Assembly (NCBI GenBank): GCA_965217895.1
Contig: CBDCJV010000002.1
Span: 1,728,001 to 1,792,000 of the forward strand
Source: Waterburya sp.
GTDB taxonomy: Bacteria; Cyanobacteriota; Cyanobacteriia; Cyanobacteriales; Xenococcaceae
Reading direction: 5' to 3'
DNA: 64,000 nt
Positions within the stretch are counted from its first letter, which is position 1. Every line of letters starts with the position of its first letter. This document shows positions 4,391 to 8,038 of this stretch, in pieces. A program made the position numbers and the translations under genes. The notes below the pieces were generated by a model. The model saw nothing but the letters and a program-made list of their open reading frames with translations. It was not told the origin of the DNA and ran no database searches.

Positions 4391-5035
4391 TTAGAGAATT
4401 TCTAACAAATGATCTCGCGTGTACACTACTCTCGAATGTCTTAAGTTTCCTTTATTCCAAACTAGATAAAGATTGTTACGAGGATAAAATTCTGTCTGAT
4501 GTAAAAGACGGAGATTGCCAGTCTGTAGCTTTTGTTCACACAGATATTTTGGTAAAACAGTATAACCTTGACTAAAAGATACAAGCGATCGCACTATTCT
4601 TAAATCAGCAACAGTCACCGTCGCCTGAATATCTAGTTGAATTTGAAATACCTCGGCAAAATATTGACGAACTAATGGTAAATCTTCATCGTAGGCGATC
4701 AAAGGCAAACTCAATAATTGCCGTGGATCGAATGGTTTAATTAAATGTTGCTTTTCCCAATCAGCAGCAGCAACTAAAATCAAAGTCTCCTGCTCAATTT
4801 CAGCATAATCTAAAGCTTTACTTTGAGGTTGAGATGCGGTGATTGCCAGATCTACTGTGCCATCATCCAATAGTTGATAAATGCGTTCTTTTCCACCTAA
4901 ATGAATTCTGACTTTGAGATCGTGAGCCAATAAAGATGCGATCGCGGGTAATACTTTAGCATCTAAAAATTCGGCTGGGGTTGCCAAATGAATTGTACCA
5001 GCAACGGTTGCAATACGCGATCGCACCGCATTAAA
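4391..5035 (-). pseudogene. LysR-family regulator, 5'-truncated (substrate-binding domain only)
   Basis: LLDDGTVDLAI and LPLIAY LysR substrate domain; no N-terminal HTH; in-frame TAG just upstream of about 5035. Confidence 0.8.
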
Positions 5036-5400
5036 CTACGAGATGGTGCGCCCGTTAAACCAGAATCTGCTCAATCAGAATCTTAGAAGACATCTAAAAA
5101 ATTACTTTCTTACAACCTAATCTCCTAATTTCGCCCCCCCGCCCCCAAGTTTGGGGTAGGGCTGTTTCATTCTCTAAAAAAGAAATGCGATCGCGAATAA
5201 GTATATTTACTATTCCTATCAATGGCACAAAGAAAGTAATAATGGCAAATTATGGCTTAAATAACTGATTGCCTCGGTCATAGAATCGAAACCATGAACT
5301 CTCAGTAGGTTAATAACCCAACTTTTAATCAAGGAGATGTTTGTAGATGCTTTGCCGTGAAGTTGAGGGCTGTTATCTTCTTTCGTTACGACATCCTTAA

Positions 5401-5442
5401 ACGGCACTCAATACGGCGACGCAGGTTCGCCGTCCGTACCTC
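5401..5442 (-). repeat. 42-bp hairpin micro-element (GAGG...CCGT family)
   Basis: Removing it restores transposase codons W-H-W-V-K-D; related to 51442-51486. Confidence 0.8.
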
Positions 5443-5489
5443 CCCAATGCCAACGATTCTCGATACCCCAATGTCGGCCAATACCTTGG

Positions 5490-5863
5490 GGAATAAGCCA
5501 AGAAGTTGCTGTTCACAAGTAGCAGTAGCGCAGCCTGGAGGCTGCCGACGTTGCTCCGCAACGGCTAGACGCGAAGCGCGTCTGCAAGTTCAACCTCTGC
5601 CACAGCAAGCAAAGCTTGCAAAGTCGTCGAAGACGACGACATGGAGCGATAGCTCCTGTGTCAGACAAAGGGCTTGCCCGCATGTATTCAAGAGTTGAAT
5701 TATTTTTTCACCTTTTCCTCATCAATGAAGAGGCTGCATATCCAACTTCGGAGTTTTTCTTAATTGCTATCTGCTATTTGCACACGCTGGAGCGTGTCGC
5801 CATCGCGAAGCGATGTCGGCGTTCTCCAGAACGCGCTACTTGCTACTTAACTCCGAAGGAGTT
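5490..5863. repeat. Composite array of short GC-rich hairpins and STRR heptamers inside the ISAs1 transposase
   Basis: About ten 5-7 bp stems with 3-4 nt loops (TGGA, GAA, TCC, AAA, GATA), flanked by AAGTAGC/AAATAGC heptamers. Confidence 0.85.
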
Positions 5864-6651
5864 GGGTAAAGAACTAATGTAATAAGTAGCCGAATCCGAT
5901 TCATAATTATGATTACCTCTAATTCCCGAACGGAAAATCTTAATCACACTATAAACTCCAATCCAGCAAGAATTAAGATTTAGTGGAGGCTCAAATACTT
6001 CTACAGTTCGATGAGTTAGTCTGTTTCTAGTTTTTTCCGACTGCTTAAAGCGACGAATCGCAGTCTTATTGAGTGTTTGAAATTCTATTAGAGAAATGCA
6101 ATATCTTTCTCACTTTGTTTCTTATTTTCCCTAACTTTTATGCCTAAAATTTCCCCGCCTTCATGAGTCAAAGCCGAAACCATCATGACGAAGTTTTGCT
6201 GTTGTCCATAACAGTCGTTGACAGTATTTTTCAAACTTTTGCCATCAATTGCAATCCATTGACCTTGACTATTGTGAGTATACTGAGATGCCCATTCATT
6301 AAATACTTGAGTTACTGCCTCATAGTCTAAGCTCATCATTACCCTTCTCATTGTCGAATAAGATGGAACTCTAGCTTGTGGGATTTTGAGCGTTTCAATT
6401 AATTGACGGCGATGCCGTTCGACAAATCTGCCCAAACCTCGATATCCCCAATAACCGCTCATTATGCCTAAAATCGTTATCAATAATATCAGCCACAAAG
6501 AATGCCTTCGACCACCTGCTTTTCGCTCATCAGGTATTTGTTTCAAATAGTCAATTAAGCTTTTATCAAAGTTTTTTAAAGTCATTGAGCGGTTAAATTA
6601 GGTTTTATATCAATTTACCGCACTTTAGCTTTAGAATGAAACAGCCCTACC

Positions 6652-7273
6652 AGGTGTTGGGGGTAAAAGCACTTCCCCTTCGGTAGAGATTGGTCTTCAA
6701 TCCGAAAAGCGGGGATAAAAGCGGTTCTGACTGGAAGTCTAATCTGGTTCACCGCAAGCAAGAAACCCATGGGTAGCGAAAGCAAAGTATCCTCAAATTC
6801 CGTTACAAACAAATAGCCCAAAAGACTGATAGGCTATTGCCAAAAGGCAACAGGGCAAAACAACAGACATTAAAATATCATCTTTTAATGTTCAACATCC
6901 AAAACCCTCGGAACATAGGATTAGTAAACATCGTTAGTCTGAAACAGCAAAAATAGACTATTGGCTGTAGCCAAAAGGCAATAAATCTAGCTGATTTATA
7001 ATTGTTTATTTCTAAATCCACACCAGCTATAGATTTCGGTGGAAGTTTACACCCTAAAGGTTCCAACCAACGGATATTCGGAACGAGGAAACCCCTCCAT
7101 AACTCTCAGCAATGGTCGAACTTGTTGAGTAGTCAATTAAGACGCAATATCTCTAGAAATAGAGGTTATAGAGGGAGTAGGATTCGGTAAAAAGCTAATG
7201 CTCGTATGTAATGTATGAGATATGCCCACGTACCGACTGTAATTAGGAAGATAGTGAACAAGTAAGCGTAAAT
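6652..7273 (+). ncRNA. Group II intron ribozyme 5' part (DI-DIII), relic
   Basis: Directly upstream of the RT ORF; motifs GGGTAGCGAAAG..GTATCCTC, GGAACGAGGAAACCCC and GGAGTAGGAT..AAAAAGCTAATG resemble cyanobacterial chloroplast-like introns; boundaries uncertain. Confidence 0.6.
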
Positions 7274-8038
7274 ATGTCTAAAACTGATTTAAAACAATTA
7301 AATACAGTGGAATGGAACGAGATTGATTGGCGAAAAGTCGAGAAATCTGTTTTTAAGCTCCAAAAGCGAATCTATCAAGCCAGCAAAGATGACAATGTAC
7401 GAAAGTTAAGAAGGAACGTCCTCAAGGAGAATAAAAAATCTCTCTCCCTTATTAGATACGCAGACGATTTCTTGATTATCCATGAAAACCTGGACGTAAT
7501 TAAAACTTGTCAAGAATTAATAGGACAATGGCTCTTGGAAATAGGATTAGAACTCAATCAAGAAAAAACCAAAATTGCACATACCCTCAATAACTACGAG
7601 GATAACAAACCAGGGTTCGATTTCTTAGGGTTCAACATTAGACAATTCCCAGTAGGAAAATACCAATCAGGTAAGAATACCAACGGCGAAAATCTAGGGT
7701 TCAAAACGATTATCAAACCATCAAAAGAAAAGGTAAAAGAACATTACCGCAAGCTAGCCAATATAGTAGACAACCTTAAGGCTGCACCGCAGCACGCACT
7801 GATTTCAAAACTTAACCCAGTGATTAGAGGATGGTATAACTACTACAGAACAGTTTGCAGCAAAGAAACATATTCCAAAATGAATCAATTGCTGTTCTAC
7901 AAACTTATTAAATGGGGATATCAAAGACATTCTAACAAGAGTAAAACTTGGTCTAACAATAAATACTGGCACACAATTGGTATGAATAACTTAGTTAGTT
8001 GTTTCGGCTACTTGTTTTATCGTTTTACCCGTCGATAG
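7274..8038 (+). pseudogene. Group II intron reverse transcriptase/maturase, internally deleted and 3'-truncated
   Basis: N-terminus WNEIDWRKVEKSVFKLQKRIY joined almost directly to LIRYADDF; GFDFLGF; maturase X domain LNPVIRGWYNYY; no endonuclease domain or DV/DVI seen. Confidence 0.9.

Follow-up and report, generated by a model that had tools for sequence, protein, structure and literature searches.

The locus

The window analysed here is a stretch of 64,000 nucleotides from the genome of Waterburya sp. (5.29 Mb; called G000 below, with coordinates in it prefixed C2). At about 5129-6660, on the minus strand, it holds an insertion sequence which we take, from its transposase motifs, to be of the ISAs1 family. 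The transposase gene is broken into an N-terminal ORF at 6088-6585, which matches Pfam DDE_Tnp_1_assoc, and a C-terminal piece at 5219-5407; its reading frame is split between YYISSLPN and GRHWGIEN by a gene-less composite element of about 360 bases (TTCACAAGTAGC...GGAGTTGGGTAA, 5510-5870), which is carried by eight copies of the insertion sequence in the genome. A small hairpin, GGCGAC-GCAGGT-TCGCC, also interrupts the frame at about 5403-5433, between the GIENRWHW motif and the C-terminal piece, and an extra match to this stretch is seen in one other copy of the insertion sequence (C2:1715968-1715998). Further along, at 7274-8038 on the plus strand, lies a 254-amino acid ORF that resembles, as judged by eye, a piece of the reverse transcriptase of a group II intron.

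The composite bears two copies, in opposite orientations, of a small three-hairpin cassette, with a different insert of 58 nt between them. Both copies were read from the sequence and are supported by folding and by the covariance model R1 described below (69.3 bits for copy A; 82.8 bits for copy B on the minus strand). Copy A (54 nt, 5530-5583, plus strand) consists of a first hairpin, H1, with the loop TGGA (GCAGCC-TGGA-GGCTGC, 5530-5545), linker 1, CGAC (5546-5549), a second hairpin, H2 (GTTGC-TCC-GCAAC, 5550-5562), linker 2, GGCT (5563-5566), and a third hairpin, H3, with a 7-bp stem and the loop AAG (AGACGCG-AAG-CGCGTCT, 5567-5583); a GC directly follows at 5584-5585, and then come further heptamers. 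Copy B (53 nt, 5834-5782, minus strand) comprises H1, again with the loop TGGA (GCGTTC-TGGA-GAACGC, 5834-5819), CGAC (5818-5815), H2 (ATCGC-TTC-GCGAT, 5814-5802), GGCG (5801-5798) and H3 with the loop TCCA (ACACGC-TCCA-GCGTGT, 5797-5782), and then GC. As the first-pass annotation had stated, both copies stand directly after AAGTAGC-type heptamers, which lie at 5517-5529 on the plus strand before copy A and, as two AAGTAGC units, at 5835-5848 on the minus strand before copy B. The heptamers that follow copy B, also on the minus strand, read GC-AAATAGC-AGATAGC-AATTAAG (5759-5781); the first GC would be the leftover of a heptamer whose other five bases the cassette replaced. Copy B and its heptamers lie within an outer inverted repeat, CTTCGGAGTT / AACTCCGAAG (5746-5755 and 5849-5858), which the repeat finder also returns.

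The two copies share a single plan: N6-TGGA-N6', CGAC, N5-loop-N5', GGC(G) and a third hairpin. Their stems differ at three of six pairs in H1 and two of five in H2, with every change compensated, and direct reading and folding bear out the original description of look-alike three-hairpin elements with compensatory stems at 5517-5848. That description also called the linkers and the first loop identical, which is right for the H1 loop and for CGAC and wrong for linker 2 (GGCT in A, GGCG in B); the H3 loops, AAG and TCCA, differ as well. Together A and B form an inverted repeat with 49-nt arms that are 73% complementary. Folded as single-stranded DNA, each gives three hairpins on either strand (z from -2.9 to -3.95, 200 shuffles each). 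Copy B also matches R1 on the plus strand, and is thus nearly two-fold symmetric.

The composite and its slots

The composite is also found outside the insertion sequence, at C2:337313-337672, 3825000-3825352 and 1876133-1876467, and shorter variants of it lie at three further sites in G000. Among seven aligned composite copies the right-hand slot has four different states, with other cassettes or the other orientation, so the inverted arrangement of A and B is incidental. A and B are different cassettes in two slots of the composite, both of them passengers; the opposite orientations noted from the start are real, while the two copies do not make up a functional unit.

The 58-nt insert between them (5602-5659, plus strand) has a closing stem, CACAG/CTGTG, and three predicted hairpins (folding z -5.75). 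In its place other composite copies have only TAAA(G) or TGAA(G), 4-5 bases. It occurs in ten copies in G000, all identical and all inside composites, and a sequence search of G000 for independent variants found none beyond these ten.

Two paralogous cassettes, at C2:3825020-3825081 and C2:2503190-2503251, have identical H1 (GCGAAC-TGGA) and H3 (AGCCGC-TCCAC), while their central 21 bases are different and in opposite orientation: CGCC-TTTCC-GAA-GGAAA-GTCG in the former, CGAC-TGCAC-TTT-GTGCA-GGCG in the latter. The central 21-base unit seems, then, to be exchangeable on its own.

A family with free but paired stems

The pattern derived from A and B in the first-pass annotation recurs at 28 sites in G000, so other copies do exist. 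The fixed letters alone (TGGA N6 CGAC N13 GGC, pairing not required) pick out 49 sites, 44 of which are perfect in H1 and H2, one has one mismatch and four show a one-base register shift. In the covariation statistics, across 17 aligned variants, 98.9% of cells are paired and 16 of the 17 pairs have changed on both sides, which none of 500 shuffles reaches, and when partners are slid by 1-3 columns only 29-47% still pair. R1, the covariance model built from these 17 variants, has 72 matches in G000, many of the sites matching on both strands.

A pooled set of 74 distinct sequences, from G000 and from loci in its relatives, was chosen on the fixed letters alone. In 55 of them every pair of the three helices is Watson-Crick; 13 contain between one and three mispairs, five are register-shifted and one is a chance match. 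H1 pairs in this set are 92.3% Watson-Crick, 1.4% G-T and 6.3% mismatched, and H2 pairs 96.4%, 0.7% and 3.0%; shuffled partners are Watson-Crick at 50-54%, with a maximum of 59-63% in 1000. The 52 distinct perfect cassettes contain 16 H1, 22 H2 and 26 H3 stems, freely combined (H1 GCGAAC, for one, is seen with 10 different H2 stems), and the early claim that the fold is kept while the sequence changes therefore holds family-wide. The family plan is a TGGA-loop hairpin, CGAC, a central hairpin, GGCG and a further hairpin that usually has a TCCA loop, the stem letters being free as long as they pair. No core-less form, with TGGA and TCCA hairpins at a spacing other than 21, was found in G000, where 20 of 20 perfect pairs are spaced by 21.

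At L103 and L113 in genome G062 and at L056 in G023, tandem cassettes are separated by GACGGAGC; cassettes there also form a chain of five hairpins, two successive cassettes sharing one hairpin as H3 of the former and H1 of the latter.

Distribution

A search of relatives gave matches in 12 of 41 genomes, all in the window's genus. At the family level 11 of 42 genomes have them (9 of 26 in genus g1, the single genome of g23, and 0 of 14 in seven other genera), and at the order level, with 36 candidates scored per genome, at least 4 of 151, one of them outside the family; among the 36 candidates scored per genome there was no match in 28 of the 30 families sampled. Complete genomes of the genus carry 22-88 matches and draft assemblies few, probably because the repeats are unassembled in drafts; G053 and G054, in 10 and 7 contigs, have no matches. 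Genomes rich in cassettes number at least five (G000, G019, G020, G023 and G062, to which G049 can be added), and at least four that are well assembled (G053, G054, G050 and G051) have none. A strict pattern run against one genome per species of bacteria and archaea returned 43 loci. In nine of them 14 or more of the 17 pairs form, and all nine come from cyanobacterial records, including Waterburya sp., Hyellaceae and uncultured Pleurocapsa; the remaining 34, nearly all from genomes outside the cyanobacteria, show no more than 10 of 17 pairs and are chance matches. Waterburya is placed in Pleurocapsales, and the cassette was found only in some Pleurocapsales-like cyanobacteria. Such a patchy distribution is as expected of a selfish element.

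A fold kept in DNA

An H3 with the loop TCCA is an H1-type hairpin on the opposite strand, and the cassette as a whole is nearly two-fold symmetric. Orientation resides in the central 21 bases alone: CGAC is the complement of GGCG but for one A.G pair, and 36 of 52 cassettes have TTC, TTT or TCC as the H2 loop, as against 6 of 52 with GAA, AAA or GGA. In the predicted fold of copy B, CGAC pairs with GGCG, and together with the flanking GC/GC this closes a four-way junction.

Strong covariation in three helices, and a central hairpin that is oriented and has a T-rich (in RNA, U-rich) loop, are what one could cite for a structured RNA, some regulatory or processing signal conserved by selection on its RNA fold. 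We regard this as very improbable, given that G-U pairs stand at about 1%, no commoner than mismatches, that the reverse strand folds equally well, that copies lie in either orientation within their carriers and also within a transposase gene, and that well-assembled genomes of the same genus, G053 and G054, are without the cassette; a search of Rfam with both strands of window positions 4800-6800 gave no matches at E up to 1. As both strands fold alike and G-T pairs make up only about 1% in the cassette helices, being as rare as mismatches or rarer, the fold is kept at the DNA level and the covariation is not evidence for a functional RNA. Since the central 21-base unit is oriented and its loop T-rich, the recognised, active form may be one folded strand.

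Another reading is a host binding site, for example a two-fold site for a DNA-binding protein or a restriction-modification enzyme, reading the inverted words CTGGAG/CTCCAG. These two words vary little and flank the H2 loop at a distance of 14 bases on each side, and CTGGAG is recognised by type IIS enzymes whose cuts fall 16/14 bases away. The type IIS version was dropped: CTGGAG is not avoided in G000 (observed/expected 1.17, rank 3792 of 4096 hexamers) and not every cassette has these loops, some showing other H3 loops or TTGGAA in H1. The patchy occurrence within the genus speaks against any host function, and we give a host binding site hardly any credence.

Several palindromic or near-palindromic hexamers are nearly absent from G000, namely GTGCAC (observed/expected 0.01), GAGCAC/GTGCTC (0.02) and GGCGCC (0.02), followed by TTCGAA, GACGTC and GAGCTC (0.04 each) and CTGCAG (0.06); this scarcity probably reflects restriction-modification avoidance.

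Filled and empty sites

Cassettes sit in heptamer runs inside several miniature transposons that have different terminal repeats, and three such families with different ends provide both filled and empty copies with exact junctions. Insertion into heptamer runs, as first proposed, is shown by these filled and empty paralogous elements. In one example the empty copy reads ...AAGTAGC-AAGTA/GC-AGATAGC... and the filled one ...AAGTAGC-AAGTAGC-[53 nt]-GC-AGATAGC.... In AAGAGCT runs it is CT that directly follows the cassette, which thus stands just before the final dinucleotide of the local heptamer. The heptamer junction is compatible alike with replacement of five bases and with a 2-base target duplication; one site, in an ATGTAGT run at C2:4953423, fits neither exactly.

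This ambiguity is resolved by a second carrier, the hairpin family CCCTTGCGCC-N4-GGCGACGCGGGGTC with the centre CCCTTGCGCC-TGAC-GGCGACGCGGGGTC, which has 60 regex matches in G000: 52 of 28 nt, five of 40 nt and single ones of 49, 76 and 79 nt. At C2:2083961 the 76-nt hairpin has GCGCC-[53 nt]-GCGAC where the empty ones have GCGCC-TGACG-GCGAC, and 76 = 28 - 5 + 53; in this hairpin-loop target, five bases have been replaced and nothing duplicated. The same hairpin-loop junction is present at five loci of two relatives. Targets include heptamer runs, hairpin loops and also non-repeat sites, with left flanks that vary (AGC, GCT, GCC, CGT, GAC). The expectation of an AAGTAGC-type context was accordingly correct in that heptamer runs are used, and too narrow in that they are not the only sites.

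Members of this hairpin family are spread throughout G000 (C2:88942, 1370143 and 2917805 are examples), their outer stems covary, and their YGAC-GGCG centre resembles the cassette linkers; the family carries, besides the cassette, at least one other insert, in the 79-nt form at C2:4110695. As to the miniature transposons, G000 has at least five families of 190-290 bases with different terminal inverted repeats, in some copies of which an internal heptamer run hosts a cassette (examples are at C2:1493000-1493140, 1840021-1840276, 1423154-1423393, 411161-411381 and 1150702-1150991).

At orthologous loci, a 99-base hairpin-plus-cassette present in G000 (C2:2083945-2084043) is absent from G019 and G020, and a 186-base miniature transposon with its cassette, present in G000, is absent from G019, G020 and G023. 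Carriers thus move while loaded with the cassette. Gain or loss of a cassette alone was not seen at orthologous loci: the two G000 sites compared differ by the whole carrier, and two sites of G062, which is too diverged, have no alignable intergenic orthologue.

Most G000 copies are passengers of larger repeats, and cassettes within one carrier type are alike, all hairpin-loop copies having H3 GCGAAC or GCAGAC. Palindromes, moreover, are deletion-prone. One might therefore take the three hairpins for a fast-evolving internal part of a few carriers, not mobile themselves, and the "empty" copies for precise deletions. We think this decidedly unlikely. In the hairpin family there is one filled 76-nt copy to 52 uniform 28-base empties, which makes insertion the simpler direction, and the same plan with the same constant letters is found in at least five unrelated carriers, so that it must have been copied between carriers at least that often.

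How the cassette may move

The Y1 transposase (PF01797), a RAYT or IS200 type of enzyme, was considered as the mover and rejected, as it shows no co-distribution with the cassette in the genomes compared: G000 has a single weak match (E 7e-6) and G020 none with 22 cassette matches, while the cassette-free genomes G054 and G053 have 18 and 26. No gene recurs beside the cassette clusters of G062 and G023. Terminal inverted repeats are lacking in the cassette; within any one copy H1 shows no sequence relationship to H3, and the H1 and H3 sets of the 52 perfect cassettes have just four stems in common.

The failure of any enzyme to track with the cassettes, as tested with PF01797, is one of several points that favour spread without an enzyme, by template switching in replication or by gene conversion through flanking heptamers or GC-rich stems acting as short homology, with the stems perfected by quasi-palindrome correction. 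Such correction is established in E. coli. A 77-base block of heptamers, cassette B and heptamers is 98.7% identical in two unrelated carriers, which makes an enzyme-free route between heptamer runs plausible. Loops are flipped on unchanged stems (AAG and CTT in the H3 of A-type copies; TTGCC-AAG and TTGCC-CTT in H2), the swap and inversion of the central 21 bases in paralogous composites is of the same tenor, and an internal deletion derivative is seen at C2:2747271-2747115. As an account of the whole family we nevertheless judge this unlikely, though worth keeping in mind. The exact ends and the 53-base length recur in carriers with no common flanks (the hairpin loop, the three miniature-transposon families and the non-repeat sites), there is no consistent microhomology at the junctions, and the stems turn over around an unchanging TGGA, CGAC and GGCG, a pattern that implies recognition of specific sequence.

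On balance, then, the explanation we favour, with some reserve, is that A and B are copies of a 53-54-base gene-less cassette, likely a non-autonomous mobile element that is moved as folded single-stranded DNA by a putative structure-reading enzyme supplied in trans. Such an enzyme would be structure-specific, would act on one folded single strand, and would recognise the constant loops (TGGA/TCCA) and linkers (the CGAC/GGCG arm, A.G pair included), while the stems need only pair. Selection for mobility might account in part for the upkeep of perfect stems, and self-correction of palindromes in replication for another part; among heptamer runs the cassette may also spread by gene conversion.

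A more specific and more speculative form of this idea, which we offer tentatively, is a "loop swap" class of ultra-small mobile DNA. The 53-base strand and its flanks would fold into a four-way junction, and an undescribed structure-specific enzyme, of neither the Y1 nor the HUH kind, would trade it for the five unpaired bases of a hairpin loop or heptamer, reading the TGGA/TCCA apices and the A.G mismatch of the central arm. Perhaps the abundant hairpins of about 48 bases, whose YGAC-GGCG centre is similar, are moved by this machinery too.

Comparison with known systems

Small dispersed repeats, SDR1-8, were reportedly described by Elhai and colleagues in 2008 from Nostoc punctiforme and its relatives. 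In the citing papers the SDR repeats are given as 21-27 nt, and SDR5 as a 21-nt repeat lying inside the HIP1 octamer and reported only in heterocystous Nostocaceae. On these descriptions the likeness to the cassette is considerable, in that both are very small gene-less cyanobacterial repeats that behave as mobile modules at exact points in short host repeats, with no mover named for either. Unlike the SDR repeats as so described, the cassette is 53-54 nt long, has three hairpins and was found only in Pleurocapsales-like genomes. The species-wide and order searches did not place the cassette in heterocystous Nostocaceae, and its exact insertions are into heptamers and hairpin loops, none being seen into HIP1, the SDR5 target. 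The central oriented unit of the cassette is also 21 nt, as is SDR5 in those papers, which is a lead only. Our best reading, by analogy, is that the Nostoc repeats are the nearest described kind and the cassette is analogous to them but distinct.

REP sequences are described as a single imperfect hairpin bearing a GTAG or CGTC tag, and REPINs as inverted doublets of these, associated with RAYT transposases (PMC3116915, PMC3733652). As far as those accounts go, the cassette resembles them as a short extragenic palindrome in many copies, non-autonomous and read as structure, and copies A and B even follow a REP-like GTAG, which is supplied by the AAGTAGC heptamer. Unlike REPs and REPINs as there described, the cassette has three separate perfect hairpins in place of a single imperfect tagged palindrome, and GTAG is absent where it sits in AAGAGCT runs, TATTAGC runs or the hairpin loop. 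Nor does it have a cognate, co-distributed Y1 (RAYT) gene, as judged from PF01797.

The miniature elements of IS200/IS605 type (PATEs) insert next to a fixed 4-5-base word, remove no target bases and need a Y1 TnpA. They share with the cassette hairpins near the ends, the lack of a clear target duplication and a probable action on single-stranded DNA; they differ in that the cassette replaces five target bases, has variable left flanks, goes into loops and heptamers, and reaches 22 matches in G020 with no Y1 gene. The marks of a DDE-type MITE, terminal inverted repeats and target-site duplication, are likewise missing, a 2-base duplication being possible only in heptamers.

The attC site of integrons is a single long imperfect hairpin with R and L boxes beside a gene cassette and needs the IntI integrase; it recombines as one folded strand, the choice of strand being set by unpaired or extrahelical bases. 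There, as here, it is the fold and not the sequence that is conserved, and the strand-choice bases of attC may be compared with the constant A.G pair and the T-rich loop of the central hairpin, but the element described here has three hairpins and no gene.

Literature on hairpin modules in Pleurocapsales and on heptamer repeats yielded no description of the cassette. What is possibly new here is the cassette itself, as a very small non-autonomous palindromic mobile DNA, which is a known kind, and possibly its mechanism as well.

Implications

For the discovery of RNA motifs the family is a caution, as perfect covariation in three helices is here most likely the mark of DNA palindromes and not of a functional RNA. 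How repeats too small to encode anything spread in bacterial genomes has been an open question since the Nostoc small dispersed repeats of 2008. The cassette family is an unusually clean test case for it, its 53-base geometry being fixed and its recognition letters constant, with dozens of copies that differ in sequence, and with filled and empty sites whose exact junctions have five target bases replaced; and since there are close relatives with and without cassettes, the enzyme may be sought by phylogenetic profiling.
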